IMG/VR virus record: IMGVR_UViG_3300032020_000845
Coordinates: 1-64,000 of that record
Length of the DNA: 64,000 bases
From: a virus
Strand: one strand, 5' to 3'
Shown here: positions 5,596 through 28,045 of the stretch, piece after piece
Position numbering within the stretch: the stretch's first letter is position 1
Layout of the letters: each line of letters opens with the position of its first letter
Program-made: the position numbers and the translations under genes
Notes under the pieces: generated by a model
Databases searched by the model: none
What the model saw: only the letters and a program-made list of their open reading frames with translations
What the model was told of the DNA's origin: nothing

Positions 5596-5630
5596 AAGCG
5601 TTAGTTGTTAAGGCTAATGCTTTTATTTTT
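5596..5630 (+). terminator. Intrinsic terminator-like hairpin
   Basis: aagcgttag/ctaatgctt stem (one G-U pair) followed by a T-rich tract. Confidence 0.6.
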
Positions 5631-10897: not shown

Positions 10898-11419
10898 ATG
10901 AGTGAAGAAAAGATTAAAAAAGTTAATTTGACGTTTGAGGATTTACTTGACGATTATACAAATGTAAGTGTAAGAGCAGCACCAGGTGCAGATGTTGTGG
11001 TTGGTTCCTTTTACGATCTTCGTGTTTTCGAAGATGAAAGCATCGAAGAAATATGTTCAAATTATATAATTAATTGTTTGCCTGTGAATTTACATATGGT
11101 TGCAATAAAAGAATGGTGGCGTATTTTAAAACCAGGAGGTAAACTTTTTGTATTTTGTCCTGATGGAAATTTGATTTCAAAAAATTATGTAGATGGTTTA
11201 ATTAATATTATTGAATTTAATAAATTGTTATTTCAAAACAATAATCAAAACAGTATATACGCTGAATATGTACCTCGCTGTGCTTTTGATTTGCCAAGAT
11301 TAGTATTTTTATGTACATTTTATGGATTTGAGTTTGAGCAGACGGCTAAAAGACCTAATGCATATAAATATGAATTAGGGATAGAGTGTAAGAAAATCGA
11401 AACAAAATATCCTTATTAA
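10898..11419 (+). CDS. Class I SAM methyltransferase-like protein with degenerate motif I
   Basis: EWWRILKPGGKL; paralog of 12466 (shared RPNAY.Y.LG) but NLGCG is replaced by NLTFE. Confidence 0.7.
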   Translation: MSEEKIKKVNLTFEDLLDDYTNVSVRAAPGADVVVGSFYDLRVFEDESIEEICSNYIINCLPVNLHMVAIKEWWRILKPGGKLFVFCPDGNLISKNYVDGLINIIEFNKLLFQNNNQNSIYAEYVPRCAFDLPRLVFLCTFYGFEFEQTAKRPNAYKYELGIECKKIETKYPY

Positions 11420-11503: not shown

Positions 11504-12469
11504 ATGAAAATTATTACCACTTGCCCATTAGAATGGGCAGATACTGGTGTTTACTGGTATCTTAAAAATTTGGAATTTGTTAGTAATACTAAACATATTC
11601 CTTGGAATCAATTTCAGATTCAAGATGCTGATTTGGTTATTTCTTGTGGTATAGGAGAAGTAGATTTACTAAAGTTGAAAAGACAAAAAGTAAAAGTTGG
11701 AGTACTTTTTTGCTCTCCTTTAGCTCAAGCGCATATTGTTCCTTCTAGTCCCAATGGGGATTTGGATTCATTATTAAGATATGTAAATATGTTAAAAAGT
11801 GGAGATATTGATTATGTATTTTTAGCATCTAAACAATTAGCAGAACTTTTTAAAAATGACAAAATTATTTATTTACCTCCTCCTTTGCATTGGGAAGGAT
11901 TTCCTATTACAAAAATAGAAGACAGAAAAGGAATTGGATATTTTGGCACAATGGATAGACATAAAAATTTGGCTACAATGTTTGGAGCAGTTAAACATTC
12001 TGGAATTGAAGATCCTTTTATTATAACAGGTTCGGAAAAGATATCTATGTGTTCTTTTTTCTCACATTTATTTGATATGAAGAATATTTTTGTGTATCCG
12101 AGATTTTCAAGACCTGCTCTTTTTGAAATAATGAGTAAGGTGAAACTGGGTATCCAAATAGGTTTTTCGGAGTCTTTTTCTTATACTGTGTGGGAATCAG
12201 CAATGTTGGGAGTTCCAAGTATTGTTAGTCCAAGTATATGGTGGTATTGTGATGATCCTTTTCTTAAAAGTTATTGTATGGTTCAAAATCTTGATGACCC
12301 AATTTTGATTGGAGAAAAAATTAAAAACCTTTATCTTCTTGCTTCTATGAATAAAGATTGTGATGGTTCTGCCATATATGTTGAATTATGTAAAGTAGCT
12401 AAAAAAGTTGCTATTGAAACGATGAATAAAAATAATCAAATGATTCAAGAAATTTTTGAAAAGTTATGA
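11504..12469 (+). CDS. Divergent GT-B glycosyltransferase
   Basis: HKN, SESFSYTVWESAMLGVPSIVS (E-x7-E motif); paralog of 13868. Confidence 0.75.
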   Translation: MKIITTCPLEWADTGVYWYLKNLEFVSNTKHIPWNQFQIQDADLVISCGIGEVDLLKLKRQKVKVGVLFCSPLAQAHIVPSSPNGDLDSLLRYVNMLKSGDIDYVFLASKQLAELFKNDKIIYLPPPLHWEGFPITKIEDRKGIGYFGTMDRHKNLATMFGAVKHSGIEDPFIITGSEKISMCSFFSHLFDMKNIFVYPRFSRPALFEIMSKVKLGIQIGFSESFSYTVWESAMLGVPSIVSPSIWWYCDDPFLKSYCMVQNLDDPILIGEKIKNLYLLASMNKDCDGSAIYVELCKVAKKVAIETMNKNNQMIQEIFEKL

Positions 12470-12945
12470 AACTAAATTTAGGTTGTGGTAGTGAAATTTT
12501 ACCAGGATTTATAAATGTTGACGGTAGAAATCTTCCAGGAATAGATAAAGTTTCAGATATTAGGGATTTATCCTGGGTAAAAAATGATTCTTGCGAAGTA
12601 GTTAGAATGTCTCATATAATAGAGCATTTTAAAGAAAGTGAAATAATTAATATTTTAAAAGAATGTTTTAGGATTTTAGAAAATCAGGGAATACTTGAAA
12701 TTTATTGTCCTGATGCTAAGAAAATTGCTGCAGATTACGTAGAGGAAAAAATAGATTGTGGGGAATTTTCTAGATTGTTATTTGGCAATCAGGATTATAT
12801 AGAAAATCTTCATAAAGAGGCGATTGATAGGCTCCGGTTAGATAATATGGTAAAAGAAGTTGGGTTCGAGATTGTTGGAAGAAATCCTAGACCGAATGCT
12901 TACCTTTATGATTTGGGAAGCCAAGTAAAGAAGATTATAAAATGA
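12466..12945 (+). CDS. Class I SAM methyltransferase
   Basis: KLNLGCG...INVD...SHIIEH...FRIL. Confidence 0.85.
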   Translation: MKLNLGCGSEILPGFINVDGRNLPGIDKVSDIRDLSWVKNDSCEVVRMSHIIEHFKESEIINILKECFRILENQGILEIYCPDAKKIAADYVEEKIDCGEFSRLLFGNQDYIENLHKEAIDRLRLDNMVKEVGFEIVGRNPRPNAYLYDLGSQVKKIIK

Positions 12946-17284: not shown

Positions 17285-17776
17285 ATGGAAAAAAAGTTAA
17301 ATTTAAATTTGGGGTGTGGAGATCAAATACTCCCTGGATTTTTGAATGTAGATGCTAATTCTAATAAAGATGTTGTTTTTGATGATGTTGTTTTTCTTAT
17401 AAACTTTTCTGATAATGGCACGGATATGATTTATGCCGCTCATGTTCTTCAATGTATTTTTCCGCGAAGTAGGGTTTTGATTGCTTTGGAAAATTGGTAT
17501 AAGGTGTTAAAACCTGGTGGGCATATTATTATTGAAGTGCCTGATATAGTACCTGTGACTAAGGCTTATCTTGAAGGAAAAGTGCCTATTGAGACCTTTA
17601 TTCAGGGAATTTATGGCGTGGATAAAGATGGTATAAGACAAACAATATGTTTTAGTTTTGACTACCTAAAAAAATTATTAGAAGAAGTTGGCTTTAAGAA
17701 TATAAAAAGAATTGATCAGCCTTCATATAGTCGTCATTGTAAAGAGACTAATATTTGTGTTGAGGCTGAAAAATGA
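17285..17776 (+). CDS. Class I SAM methyltransferase
   Basis: LNLGCG, WYKVLKPGG.IIIEVPD. Confidence 0.85.
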   Translation: MEKKLNLNLGCGDQILPGFLNVDANSNKDVVFDDVVFLINFSDNGTDMIYAAHVLQCIFPRSRVLIALENWYKVLKPGGHIIIEVPDIVPVTKAYLEGKVPIETFIQGIYGVDKDGIRQTICFSFDYLKKLLEEVGFKNIKRIDQPSYSRHCKETNICVEAEK

Positions 17777-18834
17777 AAATTCTTGTAATATCGTCAGGTA
17801 ATATTACTCAATTAGCTAAATACCCGCAACACTTTGCTAAAATGGGTCACGAATGTGTTTTTATAAATCCAGCTTGGCAAAATGTTTTATGTGGGAAAAC
17901 TGCAGAAGAAGAGTTTGGAGGATTGCATATAAGGTTTTATACATGGAAAGATTTTGCTTTGAATAGGGTGTGGGAAAAAGAAAAGTTTGATGTAATTTTT
18001 GGTACTCAGCATGGAGCTTCAATAGAGACTTTGCATTATCAAGAAATGCTAAAAATACCAGCTTTATTGCAGATTTTGGATATTGCTGAAGGATCTGATC
18101 TTGCTCAAAATTTTCCTCAAGAGTATCAAAGATTATGTATGACTCAAAAATCTTATTTAGAAGCTTATAAAAGAATAAATTATTTGACAGGAATAAATCC
18201 TGCGATTCCAAAGCAAATTAAAAAGTTAATTGGAAGAGAAGATTGTTTTTGTGCTTTTTATCCTGTTGATACTGCTTTGTATGATTCTGTTCCTGAACAA
18301 AAAACTGAAGATTTTGTTTTTATAGTTAGTCGTTTAACACCTTTTAAATGTGTAGATTTAGCAATTAAAGCTTGTGCTTATGCTAAAAAGAAATTGGTTA
18401 TTGCTTCTGATGGAGGATTGAGAAAGGAGTTAGAAAAATTAGTAAAAGATTTAGGCTCGGATGTAGAATTTCTTGGATATATTCAGGATAAACAAAAAGC
18501 AGAACTAATGAAAAAATGCAAGCTCCATATATTCACGCAACAATGGGCGGAAGCACCTTGTGTTCCAAGCGCAGAAGCTTTGTATTGTGGAAAGCCTTCA
18601 ATTATTTTTGATTACCCAGATCAGAGAGCGATTGAAGGAAATTGTTCTTATTACGTAACTCCTGGAGATTGGGAAGAAATGGGAAGATATATAAATTGGA
18701 TATGGGCTCATTATGATGAAGCAAAAGAACAAGCTTTTAGAGGAAGCAAATGGGTAAAAGAAAATTTGTCTCCTAATATAGTTGCGCAACAAATTTTAAA
18801 TATTTTGGAAGAGGTTGCAAAAAAATGTTATTAA
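17773..18834 (+). CDS. Glycosyltransferase, GT-B fold (GT4-like)
   Basis: VSRLTPFK, VEFLG, EAPCVPSAEALYCGKP. Confidence 0.85.
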   Translation: MKILVISSGNITQLAKYPQHFAKMGHECVFINPAWQNVLCGKTAEEEFGGLHIRFYTWKDFALNRVWEKEKFDVIFGTQHGASIETLHYQEMLKIPALLQILDIAEGSDLAQNFPQEYQRLCMTQKSYLEAYKRINYLTGINPAIPKQIKKLIGREDCFCAFYPVDTALYDSVPEQKTEDFVFIVSRLTPFKCVDLAIKACAYAKKKLVIASDGGLRKELEKLVKDLGSDVEFLGYIQDKQKAELMKKCKLHIFTQQWAEAPCVPSAEALYCGKPSIIFDYPDQRAIEGNCSYYVTPGDWEEMGRYINWIWAHYDEAKEQAFRGSKWVKENLSPNIVAQQILNILEEVAKKCY

Positions 18835-19793
18835 CTACGACTGTAGGAAGCTTTCCTAAGCCAGATTATCTTGTTAGAGCAAGAAATCTTTTCAGTCAGA
18901 AAAAGATTTCTTTAGAGGAACTGGAAAAGTTAGAGAAGAAGGCGACTTTTGAGGTTATAAAACTTCAGGAAAGAATTGGATTAGATATTTTAGTTCACGG
19001 GGAGATGGAAAGAGGAGATATGGTTACTTATTTTGCTGAGAGATTGGAAGGATTTACCATTAGCGGTTTGGTTCGTTCTTATGGAAATAGATATTACAAA
19101 AAGCCGATTGTGTTATCAGAGATAAAAAGAAAAGCTCCCATAACCTTGGAGATGTTTGAATATGCTTCTAGTCTAACTGAAAAACCGGTTAAGGGGATGT
19201 TGACTGGCCCTTATACCATGTGCGATTGGTCTTTCAACGAATACTATCCTACTCGAAGGGATTTAGTTTTGAAATTAGCAGAGATTATTCACCAGGAGGT
19301 GGTAGATTTAGATAAAGTTGGAGCCCAATATATTCAAATAGATGAACCCGCAATTTCGACTAGACTGGATGAGATTGATTTAGCTATTGAAGGGATGAAG
19401 ATAGTTACTGATGGAATAAAGGCCAAGACCATATCTCATATCTGCTATGGAGATTTCCGAACCATTTATCCAAAAATTCTGGAATTTGCTGTTGACCAAT
19501 TGGATCTGGAATTTGCCAATAATAATTTTTCCAATTTAGATATTTTTAAAAATCCTCCCTTCACTAAAGAGATTGCAGTAGGAGTTATAGATGTACATAG
19601 CCATATAATTGAAAATAAAGAAGAGGTCAAAAAGAATATTAGAAAAGTGCTGGAAGTTTTTCCTAAAGAAAACGTTTATATTGATCCAGATTGTGGCCTC
19701 AAGACTAGAACATTAGAGGAAGCGGAAGAAAAGCTTAAAGTAATGGTTGAGGCGGTGAAAGAAATAAGGAAGGAGTTAGGAATAAAATGTTGA
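18825..19793 (+). CDS. metE: Cobalamin-independent methionine synthase, catalytic (C-terminal-type) subunit of split MetE
   Basis: TTTVGSFP, HGEMERGDMV.YF, KGMLTGPYT, IQIDEPA, Zn ligands HICYG..LEF..PDCGLKT. Confidence 0.9.
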   Translation: MLLTTTVGSFPKPDYLVRARNLFSQKKISLEELEKLEKKATFEVIKLQERIGLDILVHGEMERGDMVTYFAERLEGFTISGLVRSYGNRYYKKPIVLSEIKRKAPITLEMFEYASSLTEKPVKGMLTGPYTMCDWSFNEYYPTRRDLVLKLAEIIHQEVVDLDKVGAQYIQIDEPAISTRLDEIDLAIEGMKIVTDGIKAKTISHICYGDFRTIYPKILEFAVDQLDLEFANNNFSNLDIFKNPPFTKEIAVGVIDVHSHIIENKEEVKKNIRKVLEVFPKENVYIDPDCGLKTRTLEEAEEKLKVMVEAVKEIRKELGIKC

Positions 19794-20770
19794 TTACGAC
19801 AGTAGTAGGAAGTTATCCTAAAATTTCTTCTGATAAAACAGCTTTGAATTTGAGGAATTCTTTAAATAGGTTTGATAAGGGAGAATTATCAGAGGAAGAT
19901 TTGAAAGTGATCTATGATAGAGTTATTTTAAGGGTGGTTCAGGAACAAGAAGAAATCGGAATTGATGTAGTAACTGATGGTCAGATTCGATGGGAAGATC
20001 TTTTTGATGGGGTGAGCCAAAGTTCTTGCGGATGTAAAAGAGGATCTTTGGTAAGATTTTTTGATAATAATTTCTATTATAGAACTCCAATAGTAATGAG
20101 TTATATGGATCGTTTGCAGGCCAGGGATTTTGAAGGATATAATCGGATAGTGGATGATTTTATATTTTTAAGAAAATGTTCAGCTGTGAGAGTAAAGGCG
20201 GTGGTTCCAGGTCCTATGACTTTTGTGGCTTTGGTTGAGGATAAGATGTTTAACAATAGGTTGGAATTGATGAAGGATTATTCTCGATTTTTATGTAGAT
20301 TGTCGAGAAAGTTAGATAGGCTTGGAGCATTTTATATTCAATTGGATGAGCCTATTTTTGGGTTTGATTGTGAAATGGTTCCATATTTTGAATATTTGAA
20401 GAGTATTGAGGAAATAAGAGGTGGGATGAAAGCAAGATTGTTTGTGCATACATATTTTGGGAAGTTTCATCACTTGTGGTTGGGTAGTTTAGATATTGAC
20501 GGTTTGGGCGTGGATGTTGTTAGTGATCCCAAAAGTTTAGAAAATTTATTAGACTTAGACTTTAGGAAGATTATAGTTTTAGGCTGCATTGATGCCAGGA
20601 CAACCAAGATGGAAAATGAGAAAGAGGTGGTTAAAATTGTAGGTAAGGTGGTAGAGAAGTTTGGAAAAGAAAATGTTTGGTTAAGTCCTTCGTGTGGTCT
20701 TGAGTTTATTCCTCATGATATAGTAATAAAGAAGTTGGAGTTGTTGAAGAGAGTAGCAATGATATTTTAG
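19787..20770 (+). CDS. Split MetE N-terminal-type (non-catalytic) subunit
   Basis: VGSYPK, TDGQIRW, RFFDNNFYY, PGPMT, IQLDEP, HTYFG, IDARTT, SPSCGLE; lacks the HxC Zn motif. Confidence 0.8.
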   Translation: MLITTVVGSYPKISSDKTALNLRNSLNRFDKGELSEEDLKVIYDRVILRVVQEQEEIGIDVVTDGQIRWEDLFDGVSQSSCGCKRGSLVRFFDNNFYYRTPIVMSYMDRLQARDFEGYNRIVDDFIFLRKCSAVRVKAVVPGPMTFVALVEDKMFNNRLELMKDYSRFLCRLSRKLDRLGAFYIQLDEPIFGFDCEMVPYFEYLKSIEEIRGGMKARLFVHTYFGKFHHLWLGSLDIDGLGVDVVSDPKSLENLLDLDFRKIIVLGCIDARTTKMENEKEVVKIVGKVVEKFGKENVWLSPSCGLEFIPHDIVIKKLELLKRVAMIF

Positions 20771-20803: not shown

Positions 20804-21388
20804 ATGATATATTGTTCTGTTGAAGAATTTTTAAAAGCAATATTGGAAAAACCTTTTGAAGAAGGTTGGGATGAGAACGGAGAGCCTCCTTTTTGTAAGT
20901 TATGTCAAGAAGTTTTTGAGATAATAAAACCCTTTAATACTTTTTTAGAAATAGGTCTAGGTTTTGGAGATTTTTCATTATATTTATTAAGCCAGCACAA
21001 AAAAGTTGAAATGTTGGATGTTAAAGAAGATACTTTGATATCTATGAAAAAGATTTGTGAAGAAAGAAATTATAATTATGTTTTTCATCATCAAGATATA
21101 ACCAATCCAAAGATATCTAAAATCTATGATGTGGTAATTGCAATTGAGGTTATTGAACACATTAAGGATTACAAAAAAGCTATTTTTAATATGATGAAAT
21201 TAGCGAAGCATAAAGTTATTTTGACTACCCCAGTTTTAGGAAGTTTTTATAGTTTAGATCATAAACATGTTTTTTCAGAATCTGATTTTAAATTTATTAA
21301 TAAGGCCTATAAAATTAAACGTATTATAACAAAGAAGAAAGATATTTCAACTAGTAAAAGAGCTTTTTTAATTGAGATTAATATTTAA
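20804..21388 (+). CDS. Class I SAM methyltransferase
   Basis: LEIGLGFG, YDVVIAIEVIEH, ILTTP. Confidence 0.85.
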   Translation: MIYCSVEEFLKAILEKPFEEGWDENGEPPFCKLCQEVFEIIKPFNTFLEIGLGFGDFSLYLLSQHKKVEMLDVKEDTLISMKKICEERNYNYVFHHQDITNPKISKIYDVVIAIEVIEHIKDYKKAIFNMMKLAKHKVILTTPVLGSFYSLDHKHVFSESDFKFINKAYKIKRIITKKKDISTSKRAFLIEINI

Positions 21389-26289: not shown

Positions 26290-27275
26290 AAATATTAGTA
26301 TTTGCTTATTGTAATAAACCTTATCAAAATGGTCTTTTAATTGCTAGAGAAATGAAAACTCTTGGGCATGAAGTTTTAGTTAAATGTTTGGTTGAAAAAG
26401 AAAGGTGTCTACCATATTCTCATCCTTTAAAACCTGGATCTGCTAAATATGTATATGAACAGCAGATGTTTGAATTTGCGAAACAGTTTAACCCCGATTA
26501 TTTATTTGTGACTGGTACAGGGGTAGAGCCTAAAGAGTTTTTTGAAGGAATCTCTAAATTAGGAATAAAGTTAGTATTGTGGAATGCGGACGCTTATGTT
26601 CCAGATAAAGATAAAGGGTATTGGGATAGATATAAAGGGGTGTTTGATTTGATTATAACTTCTGTGGAAGGTATGGCAAAAGTTTTAGAGGATTATGCGA
26701 AGAGTGTTACATTTTTACCTCAGTATTATGATAATGTTTATTATAAGCCAACTATTAAAAGGTTAGATGCAGAACATGAAATTTATGACATATGTTTTAT
26801 TGGAAATACTCAAAGGGGACGGGGAATTTTTGCAAGAGAGAATTGTATTAAAGCTCTAAACAAGTTTTGTAAAGTAACAGTTTTTGGGAATGTATCTGGG
26901 GTTTCTTCTAAGGCAGAACTTTATGGTACAGAGATGGCTAATGTTTATAGGCAGTCTAAAATTACATTTGATACCCTGCACGTAATAAAAAAGGATTTAG
27001 GTTGGAAAATTTCGGATAGAATTTTTAAAGCTATGGGTTGTGGCTGTTTTTTCATTTGTCCTCCAATGCAGGGACTTGAACAATTTTTTACTCCGGGAAA
27101 ACATTTAGTAATTTATGATGGAAGTGTTGAAGATTTAGAATTAAAAGTTAAATATTATTTAGAATATGAAGATGAAAGAGAAAAAATAGCAAAACGTGGT
27201 TATGAAGAAATTATGAAAAATCATACTATTGGTGTTAGAGTAAATCAATATTTGGATGTGATGGGAAGAATATGA
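26286..27275 (+). CDS. CgeB-like glycosyltransferase (paralog of 12942)
   Basis: QYYD..YYKPTI.RLD..EIY..CFIG, SDRIFKAMGCG. Confidence 0.85.
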   Translation: MKILVFAYCNKPYQNGLLIAREMKTLGHEVLVKCLVEKERCLPYSHPLKPGSAKYVYEQQMFEFAKQFNPDYLFVTGTGVEPKEFFEGISKLGIKLVLWNADAYVPDKDKGYWDRYKGVFDLIITSVEGMAKVLEDYAKSVTFLPQYYDNVYYKPTIKRLDAEHEIYDICFIGNTQRGRGIFARENCIKALNKFCKVTVFGNVSGVSSKAELYGTEMANVYRQSKITFDTLHVIKKDLGWKISDRIFKAMGCGCFFICPPMQGLEQFFTPGKHLVIYDGSVEDLELKVKYYLEYEDEREKIAKRGYEEIMKNHTIGVRVNQYLDVMGRI

Positions 27276-28045
27276 AATTATTTTCGAGTTTTACGAAAGT
27301 TATAGAAATTATTCCTCCTTCGGGTAAAGATATGAACTCGTTTTTTAAGAGTATTAAGGTATTGAAAGAAACAGGTGTTAAGGTGGTTAGTGTTGTATCT
27401 AATCCTATGGCACAACCAAAATTGCCCGCTTTGTATATTGCTCAATATTTGATATCAGAAGGATTTAAAACAATTGTTCATTATCCTCTTTCTGGAAGGT
27501 CTGAAGTTATAGTGAAATCTGATATGCTTCAGGCAGTATCAATGGGAGTAGATGTTATGCTTATTTTATCTGGAGATCCTCATGGAATAACGTTTGAATC
27601 TGGTATGAATATATTAGATGCTATTAAATTTGTAAGATCGCATAATATTTTAGTTGGGGTCGCCGCAAACCCTAATAAAATAAACCATGAGCATTTAAAA
27701 GCCAAAGTAGATGCTGGTGCAAATTATTTTCAAACTCAACCAGTGTTTACAATAGATTGTGCATTAAAGTTTTTGAAAGAAATAGAACAATACAATTTAC
27801 CTGTGTTAATAGGTATAGTGGTTCCAAAATCTAAAAAACATCTAGAAAGATTATTACAAATTCCTGGAGTGGTTATACCAAAAGAATATTTGAAAAGTTT
27901 TGAACAAATAAATACAGAAGAAGATTTTATGACAAATGCTTTTGCGCGCGCGAATAAAATTATTGAAACGATTAAAGAAATGACAGCTGGAGTTTATTTG
28001 TCTATGCCTCAGTCTATGTTTAGATATATAGGAGAGAAAATATAA
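27272..28045 (+). CDS. metF: Methylenetetrahydrofolate reductase family protein
   Basis: EIIPP, NPMA.P, LSGDP, GVAANPN, KVDAGANYFQTQPVF, PGVVIP. Confidence 0.8.
   Translation: MKLFSSFTKVIEIIPPSGKDMNSFFKSIKVLKETGVKVVSVVSNPMAQPKLPALYIAQYLISEGFKTIVHYPLSGRSEVIVKSDMLQAVSMGVDVMLILSGDPHGITFESGMNILDAIKFVRSHNILVGVAANPNKINHEHLKAKVDAGANYFQTQPVFTIDCALKFLKEIEQYNLPVLIGIVVPKSKKHLERLLQIPGVVIPKEYLKSFEQINTEEDFMTNAFARANKIIETIKEMTAGVYLSMPQSMFRYIGEKI

Follow-up and report, generated by a model that had tools for sequence, protein, structure and literature searches.

A split MetE gene pair with discordant histories inserted in a glycan-methylation operon of an uncultured phage

Host-derived genes of the methionine cycle are known from viral genomes, in which metK, metE, metH, ahcY, mtnN and luxS have been catalogued as organosulfur auxiliary metabolic genes (Kieft et al., bioRxiv 10.1101/2021.01.05.425418). 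Besides the full-length methionine synthase MetE, a split MetE has been described, primarily from archaea (for example PF1268/PF1269 of Pyrococcus furiosus), in which a catalytic protein of at most 400 aa is encoded beside a protein scoring higher on the Pfam family Meth_synt_1 than on Meth_synt_2 (PMC7857596). Split MetE is predicted to use methyl-pterin donors, in contrast to the stand-alone MesA-D enzymes, which are folate-independent (PMC7857596), and it is still listed as 'predicted' in GapMind 2026 (PMC13759103). Here we describe a split MetE encoded by two adjacent genes at positions 18825 to 20770 of the IMG/VR virus record IMGVR_UViG_3300032020_000845. The window, i.e. the whole stretch of DNA that was analysed, comprises the first 64 kb of this 106,979-bp record, which is rated ~55% complete. 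To our knowledge, the split MetE class has never been characterised biochemically. Our reading, to which we give a probability of roughly 0.6, is that the pair is a real phage split MetE of chimeric origin, which was inserted in an older glycan-methylation operon and would boost the methyl cycle for the methyltransferases of that operon.

The catalytic (C-terminal-type) subunit is encoded on the + strand at 18825 to 19793 (322 aa) and is predicted to bind Zn and homocysteine. The protein scored 296.6 bits against Meth_synt_2 (PF01717) and 447.5 bits against NCBIfam NF003317, the split-type 'methionine synthase' equivalog (cut-off 406), whereas it stayed under the cut-off of every other short methionine-synthase model of NCBIfam and, with 325 bits, far under the cut-off of 930 of TIGR01371. 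In an alignment to residues 437-763 of T. maritima MetE all four Zn-ligand positions are filled, by H205 and C207 (HICYG), E229 (DLEF) and C290 (PDCG). These ligands belong to the 146 family-conserved columns, of which 142 are retained. The catalytic barrel aligns end to end (237 bits) with full-length MetE as known from E. coli and T. maritima (PDB 1XPG/1T7L) and has the same Zn ligands; the phage enzyme differs in being made of two polypeptides instead of one.

The second gene (+ strand, 19787 to 20770; 327 aa) overlaps the catalytic gene by 7 nt and encodes an N-terminal-type subunit, which would be the pterin- or folate-binding one. It scored higher on Meth_synt_1 (PF08267; 91.0 bits, cut-off 27) than on Meth_synt_2 (82.5 bits). 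Its best stretch in the PDB is the N-terminal barrel of a fungal MetE, and to this barrel of full-length MetE it also aligns. The protein carries the 'TYFG' signature of the N-domain, two of the four Zn-ligand equivalents are gone, and 37 of the 42 columns with 90% or higher conservation in cellular N-halves are retained (cellular range 0.83-1.0). Both ORFs (open reading frames) are intact and translationally coupled by their overlap. Together with the conserved columns and a G+C content at third codon positions (GC3) that is still above the phage mean, this indicates that the N-half is not decaying. A first-pass annotation, made from the letters of the window, had proposed a catalytic half with Zn ligands followed by an N-terminal-type half, with a methylenetetrahydrofolate reductase (MTHFR) family gene further downstream. 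The ORFs lie exactly where it had placed them, and Pfam, NCBIfam, the Zn ligands and Foldseek agree on their identity. The starts of both MetE genes (18822-18840 and 19784-19802) lie in overlap junctions of almost the same sequence, AAAATGTTATTAACTACG and AAAATGTTGATTACGACA. The ORFs upstream of these two junctions end in ...KCY* and ...KC*, respectively, and the likeness reflects the paralogous N-termini MLLTTT and MLITTV. Such junctions could have offered microhomology for rearrangement.

Like the split MetE described before, the phage pair consists of two adjacent proteins of ~320 aa, one of them a Meth_synt_2 protein with His/Cys/Glu/Cys as Zn ligands and the other favouring Meth_synt_1. 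For the catalytic component, the class was judged by NF003317 in place of the published criterion (phmmer against PF1269, at least 200 bits; PMC7857596). The phage version differs in being virus-encoded, in its gene order (C then N), in the unlike history of its subunits and in its bacterial, Zixibacteria-type donor. The order was N then C in 101 of the 101 cellular loci that hold both halves. An MTHFR domain was detectable in 67 cellular loci; in 65 of these it is found no more than 3 kb downstream of the catalytic half, and in the loci that were read in detail (e.g. the metagenome contigs L003 and L087) the downstream gene is a YitJ-type fusion of homocysteine-S-methyltransferase (HMT) and MTHFR. 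The fusion of L003, for instance, has 631 aa and scored 770.6 bits against NF006396 (cut-off 453). Given this company, the phage pair is presumably a folate-using enzyme of the split MetE type and not a folate-independent Mes.

To place the pair in its genomic setting, the window was compared to G001, a related IMG/VR phage record (168 kb, 90% complete). G001 was retrieved by alignment-based IMG/VR scans with the MTHFR-like gene and a GT1-family glycosyltransferase gene and is the sole IMG/VR relative found at this locus; single-sequence scans of IMG/VR with the catalytic half, the N-half and the MTHFR-like protein gave no match. Its operon is collinear with the operon of the window (55-76% protein identity), and the two phages have in common the last four glycosyltransferases, the MTHFR-like gene (64%) and the helicase after it (75%). 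No MetE homologue was found anywhere in G001. In G001, the GT1 gene directly precedes a methyltransferase reading frame, and it is exactly between these two genes that the 1.95-kb MetE pair sits in the window phage. The upstream boundary is the GT1 gene at 17773 to 18834 (+ strand; Glycos_transf_1, 72.7 bits), which is 66% identical to its G001 homologue (L086:448-1506) and whose last 10 nt overlap the start of the catalytic half. The downstream boundary is a class-I methyltransferase gene dependent on S-adenosylmethionine (SAM) at 20804 to 21388 (+ strand; Methyltransf_25/31), separated from the end of the N-half by a 33-nt spacer and 72% identical to the gene directly after the G001 GT1 gene. 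Because G001 has the same operon, including the MTHFR-like gene, and no MetE, the pair is an insertion in the short spacer between the GT1 and methyltransferase genes of an older operon. The G001 homologue of this methyltransferase (L086:1507-2087) reads through from just after the GT1 stop codon with one in-frame TGA, which falls at the second Gly of the SAM-binding GxGxG ('EVGPGL*DF', compared to 'EIGLGFGDF' in the window phage). This TGA could mean that the gene is a pseudogene or that the codon is recoded, or it could be a sequencing error; the remaining G001 genes look intact under table 11.

Codon usage gave the same picture. GC3 is 0.313 for the catalytic half and 0.317 for the N-half compared to 0.15-0.21 for the operon neighbours, which confirms by count what had been noted by eye. 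The genome mean is 0.202 (standard deviation 0.055), and the two MetE halves are the highest of all ORFs above 200 aa. With a GC3 of 0.202 the MTHFR-like gene is fully ameliorated and hence an old part of the operon, which the MetE pair joined later. The idea of a recent capture, put forward on the basis of the codons, stands insofar as the MetE pair came later than its neighbours. It does not extend to MetE and MTHFR as one captured module, since the MTHFR-like gene is ameliorated and also present in G001, which lacks MetE.

The MTHFR-like gene is the last gene of the operon (+ strand, 27272 to 28045) and encodes a protein of 257 aa with a PF02219 score of 71.2 bits (cut-off 24). Its AlphaFold2 model has a pLDDT (predicted local distance difference test) of 87, and the top Foldseek matches are bacterial MetF proteins with TM (template modelling) scores of 0.79-0.84. 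The family is invariant at E12, H70, D102 and Q154/Q156, which align with T. thermophilus MTHFR; E28, D120 and Q183 of the E. coli enzyme served as reference catalytic residues. Two motifs are variant, 'LSGD' for 'LRGD' and 'VSNP' for 'TYGA', and resemble those of the host YitJ-type domains. The variants ('LSGD', 'SNP') had been considered as a sign of lost flavin binding and new function, an idea that was dropped since the same variants occur in host YitJ-type MTHFR domains. The phage protein and host YitJ domains also have in common the motifs S-x-P-M, [ST]GDP, ANPN and TQP, and YitJ fusions are its best matches both in NCBIfam and among Atlas structures. We read the protein as a stand-alone YitJ-type MTHFR domain, whose cofactor use is predicted. 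The phage and the Zixibacteria-type operon of L003 and L087 are alike in that their catalytic halves are 80-94% identical and that both couple MetE with a YitJ-type MTHFR domain. They differ in that the phage MTHFR stands alone without an HMT domain, is ~27% identical, is located at a distance of 6.5 kb and is older than the MetE insertion; moreover, the phage N-half is only ~40-46% identical.

The donor of the catalytic half could be traced. The protein is 73-83% identical to hundreds of proteins from Zixibacteria-type metagenome-assembled genomes (MAGs), some of which are labelled 'uncultured Ignavibacteria'. The nearest cellular copy is the C-half of L087, with 94.4% identity at the amino acid and 88% at the nucleotide level. 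L087 has a GC content of 41% and the canonical order N-half, C-half, YitJ, and the synteny of its flanks with large Zixibacteria-type MAG contigs shows that it is cellular. In the C-half tree (all trees were 'quick' IQ-TREE runs) the phage is sister to L087 with 99% SH-aLRT (Shimodaira-Hasegawa-like approximate likelihood ratio test) support and a branch of 0.048. Since this branch is nested among cellular sequences, the gene moved from cell to phage. These data indicate that the catalytic half was captured fairly recently from a Zixibacteria-type host, which makes the donor bacterial rather than archaeal, and a Zixibacteria-type lineage is likely the host of the phage.

The N-half has a different record. 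Among 5.8 billion proteins its best relative is 46% identical, and it is 40% identical to the N-half of L087, whereas in cellular pairs a C-half identity of 90-95% goes with an N-half identity of 68-93%. The ratio of N-half to C-half patristic distances between phage and L087 is 21.9, compared to a cellular median of 1.6 and a maximum of 4.35. In the N-half tree the phage falls in the same Zixibacteria subclade (97%), on a branch of 1.28. As a synonymous clock we used the identity at third codon positions of residues that are identical in both proteins. Between phage and L087, 75% of these positions are identical in the C-half (214/287) and 46% in the N-half (54/118), the latter being the saturation level of all distant pairs (0.40-0.52). 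Cellular control pairs keep both genes in step (0.75/0.81 and 0.73/0.65). Joint capture of both halves followed by fast evolution of the N-half protein was ruled out by this clock, because the synonymous sites of the N-half are saturated while those of the C-half are not, and the controls stay in step. The two halves thus have separate histories, and the enzyme is a chimera. Two independent insertions at the same spot seem the simplest account, given these histories and the reversed gene order, which homologous replacement would not produce. Phylogeny, proposed in the first-pass annotation as a way to the donor, led to a Zixibacteria-type lineage for the C-half.

The operon that received the insertion spans 5650 to 28045 on the + strand. 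It is a tightly packed, co-directional block, recognised by its Pfam content and its synteny with G001, and contains about a dozen GT1/GT4 glycosyltransferases, a DegT aminotransferase (21398) and seven methyltransferase-like ORFs (+ strand; starts at 10898, 12466, 15787, 16543, 17285, 20804 and 22648; Pfam), two of them FkbM-type. One of these, 12466-12945, is under its Pfam gathering cut-off (24.4 compared to 27 bits). The count of seven agrees with what had been announced from the letters. Downstream of the operon lie one N6/N4 DNA methylase (the second DNA methylase announced was not searched for), the expected radical-SAM QueE-like gene and FolE2. The window thus encodes at least nine enzymes that use SAM: the seven operon methyltransferases, the N6/N4 DNA methylase and the QueE-like enzyme.

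In the proposed cycle, the seven phage methyltransferases would turn SAM into S-adenosylhomocysteine (SAH), from which host AhcY would release homocysteine. The phage MTHFR-like enzyme would make 5-methyl-tetrahydrofolate (5-methyl-THF) from methylene-THF, the phage MetE pair would use homocysteine and remethylate it to methionine, and host MetK would remake SAM. The phage would thereby add capacity at both folate-linked steps, so that methyl supply is kept up and SAH inhibition is kept down. MetE is notorious for being slow, and cells have to produce it in large amounts, so that extra copies would be a direct means of raising flux. A history in steps, with MTHFR first and then two separately acquired MetE halves that were retained together, would fit selection for methyl supply at this operon. 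From the gene content, boosting of the methyl cycle for the phage methyltransferases, as first suggested from the letters, is plausible; the activity of the enzyme, its methyl donor, the pairing of its subunits and its link to glycan methylation are predictions. We also consider, as a tentative extension that falls well short of even odds, a phage-private channel from methyl-THF to methionine for glycan methylation, with subunits from two captures and different donors brought together in a new order, in which the long-diverged N-type subunit may suit the phage MTHFR or a particular folate form. ThyX (Thy1, 214.6 bits), which also draws on the 5,10-methylene-THF pool, is encoded at 96584-97135 of the record, beyond the window.

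Several observations weigh against a methyl-cycle role of the pair in this operon. G001 runs its operon without MetE, and the pair is hence dispensable for the operon; the insertion site could also be incidental. The N-half, which is predicted to pair with the host-like (94%) catalytic half, is only ~40-46% identical to cellular N-halves, and an approximately unbiased (AU) test leaves a clade of the N-half with L087 unrejected (p = 0.10). The MTHFR-like protein misses the equivalog cut-offs of NCBIfam (130 bits against NF006396, the HMT/MTHFR fusion model), and two cofactor loops are poorly modelled (pLDDT below 50). Its family is small and isolated: among 5.8 billion proteins 14 relatives were found at 59-70% identity, and among 1.84 billion representatives the family forms one 50%-identity cluster with one neighbour, beyond which scores drop sharply to YitJ-type fusions (~610 aa) and assorted stand-alone MTHFRs (270-290 aa). 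One relative is encoded on a contig of 43.5 kb, possibly also of phage origin, that has been binned as Cloacimonadota (MCK4359386.1). Finally, a search for metK and ahcY, which had been suggested as a follow-up, and for serine hydroxymethyltransferase (SHMT) found none of them in the 107 kb of the phage record or in G001, although the record covers only ~55% of the genome. Because metK and ahcY are absent from these 107 kb, the cycle would rely on host enzymes.

The main rival is that the pair is a general methionine/SAM auxiliary gene, which would provide methionine for phage proteins and for all SAM users, its position in the operon being accidental. The SAM users outside the operon (the DNA methylase and QueE) speak for it, as do the MetE-less operon of G001 and the fact that viral metE, metH and metK have been catalogued as general organosulfur auxiliary genes (bioRxiv 10.1101/2021.01.05.425418). 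On the other hand, two separately acquired halves ended up side by side among methyltransferase genes, and the MTHFR-like gene is conserved in the operon of both phages, which ties one-carbon supply to the operon. We therefore consider a general role unlikely, though it is the strongest of the alternatives.

A second alternative, clearly less probable than the first, is that only the catalytic half matters and works with a host N-type subunit, so that the phage N-half would be a relic of an older capture or have another role. This would fit the contrast between a C-half with 94% identity to the host protein and an N-half whose identity to host N-halves does not exceed 46% and whose branch is very long. 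A relic is at odds with an intact frame that is coupled by a 7-nt overlap and has kept its conserved columns within the cellular range (37/42), and a GC3 of 0.317 argues against a long neutral residence.

A folate-independent core synthase similar to MesA-D, with a methyl group from a corrinoid protein and an unrelated MTHFR-like gene, is very improbable: MetE-like proteins of ~320 aa are often Mes enzymes and MesA is ~38% identical to split-MetE catalytic subunits (PMC7857596), but the catalytic half passes only the split-type model NF003317, the features of Mes (no N-type partner; association with a corrinoid protein or MesX/DUF1852) contrast with the N-type partner seen here and with cellular orthologues usually near an MTHFR domain, and among the operon ORFs that were scanned, Pfam revealed no gene for a corrinoid protein. 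Equally improbable is an artefact, i.e. a misassembled or misbinned host fragment, or a decaying passenger without function, which the high identity of the C-half to a cellular gene and the host contamination behind 'MetE' matches in a phage database might suggest: both ends of the pair run into or border on phage genes with synteny to a second phage, phage hallmark genes lie on the same contig, as expected of a virus-encoded auxiliary gene, GC3 of the pair lies between the host value (0.41-0.43) and that of the phage (0.20), even the nearest cellular copy reaches no more than 88% nucleotide identity, no cellular locus matches the N-half or the gene order, and the ORFs are intact with their conserved residues. 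Neither of these two outcomes, which had been named in advance as grounds to abandon the proposal, was thus borne out.

The phage genome, about 170-200 kb in size, has a GC content of ~31% in the record, and 138 of the 139 called genes are on the + strand. Its hallmarks include a baseplate-J-like gene, a family-A DNA polymerase, a DnaB-like helicase, a primase zinc finger and a UvsX-like recombinase. A megablast of 22 kb of the window against the INPHARED phage collection returned no match. Immediately before the first glycosyltransferase gene (5650), a hairpin with an 11-bp stem is followed by a T-run (5596-5622), likely a terminator that parts the tail/baseplate genes from the glycan operon. 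No terminator-like site was found near the MetE pair, around which the scan for promoters and terminators was uninformative.

In cells, the operon of N-half, C-half and YitJ fusion is widespread among uncultured bacteria, with 281 matches among the species representatives of GTDB, and it occurs in Zixibacteria, Chloroflexota/Dehalococcoidia, Omnitrophota, Limnochordales and Dictyoglomota. In the four Zixibacteria-type genomes searched, metK adjoins ahcY in all four. Met_synt_B12, the activation domain of MetH, gave only weak matches, to short ORFs, in Zixibacteria-type genomes. The chief methionine synthase in these organisms may therefore be split MetE.

Among viruses, no other split-type MetE was found by alignment-based scans of IMG/VR, a pattern-based approach that can miss divergent viral copies. 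The scan with the catalytic half returned seven distant loci, five of which are open frames of ~720-780 aa, the size of full-length MetE, with at most 46% identity; one 440-aa frame and two fragments that end at contig edges were also obtained. Two of the IMG/VR contigs (L169 and L172; 16 kb and 25 kb, GC 0.30-0.31) carry frames of ~718 aa in mid-contig, as long as a full-length two-domain MetE, that are 36% identical to the catalytic half. MetE matches in INPHARED were rejected as viral relatives, being host contamination or mislabelled bacterial records. The phage pair shares with the catalogued viral genes of the methionine/SAM cycle (Kieft et al.) that a host-derived gene is carried on a virus genome, and differs in that a split enzyme and an MTHFR-like gene lie inside a glycan operon with seven methyltransferases. 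Within the reach of our searches, a split form carried by a virus, the chimeric origin of the pair, its reversed order and its placement with an MTHFR-like gene in a glycan-methylation operon are new.

Viral methionine-cycle genes have been known mostly as single genes without context, whereas here the MTHFR and MetE steps are tied to a methyltransferase-rich operon. The phage therefore offers a concrete, testable case of methyl-group provisioning for its own modification chemistry. The chimeric, order-reversed pair would be a natural experiment on the need for the N-type subunit and on the specificity of pairing in split MetE, and the cellular copy with 94% identity gives an uncultured phage its likely Zixibacteria-type host. 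For the enzyme family, the spread of the operon of split MetE and YitJ shows that this form of methionine synthase belongs to many uncultured bacterial phyla and is not mainly archaeal.

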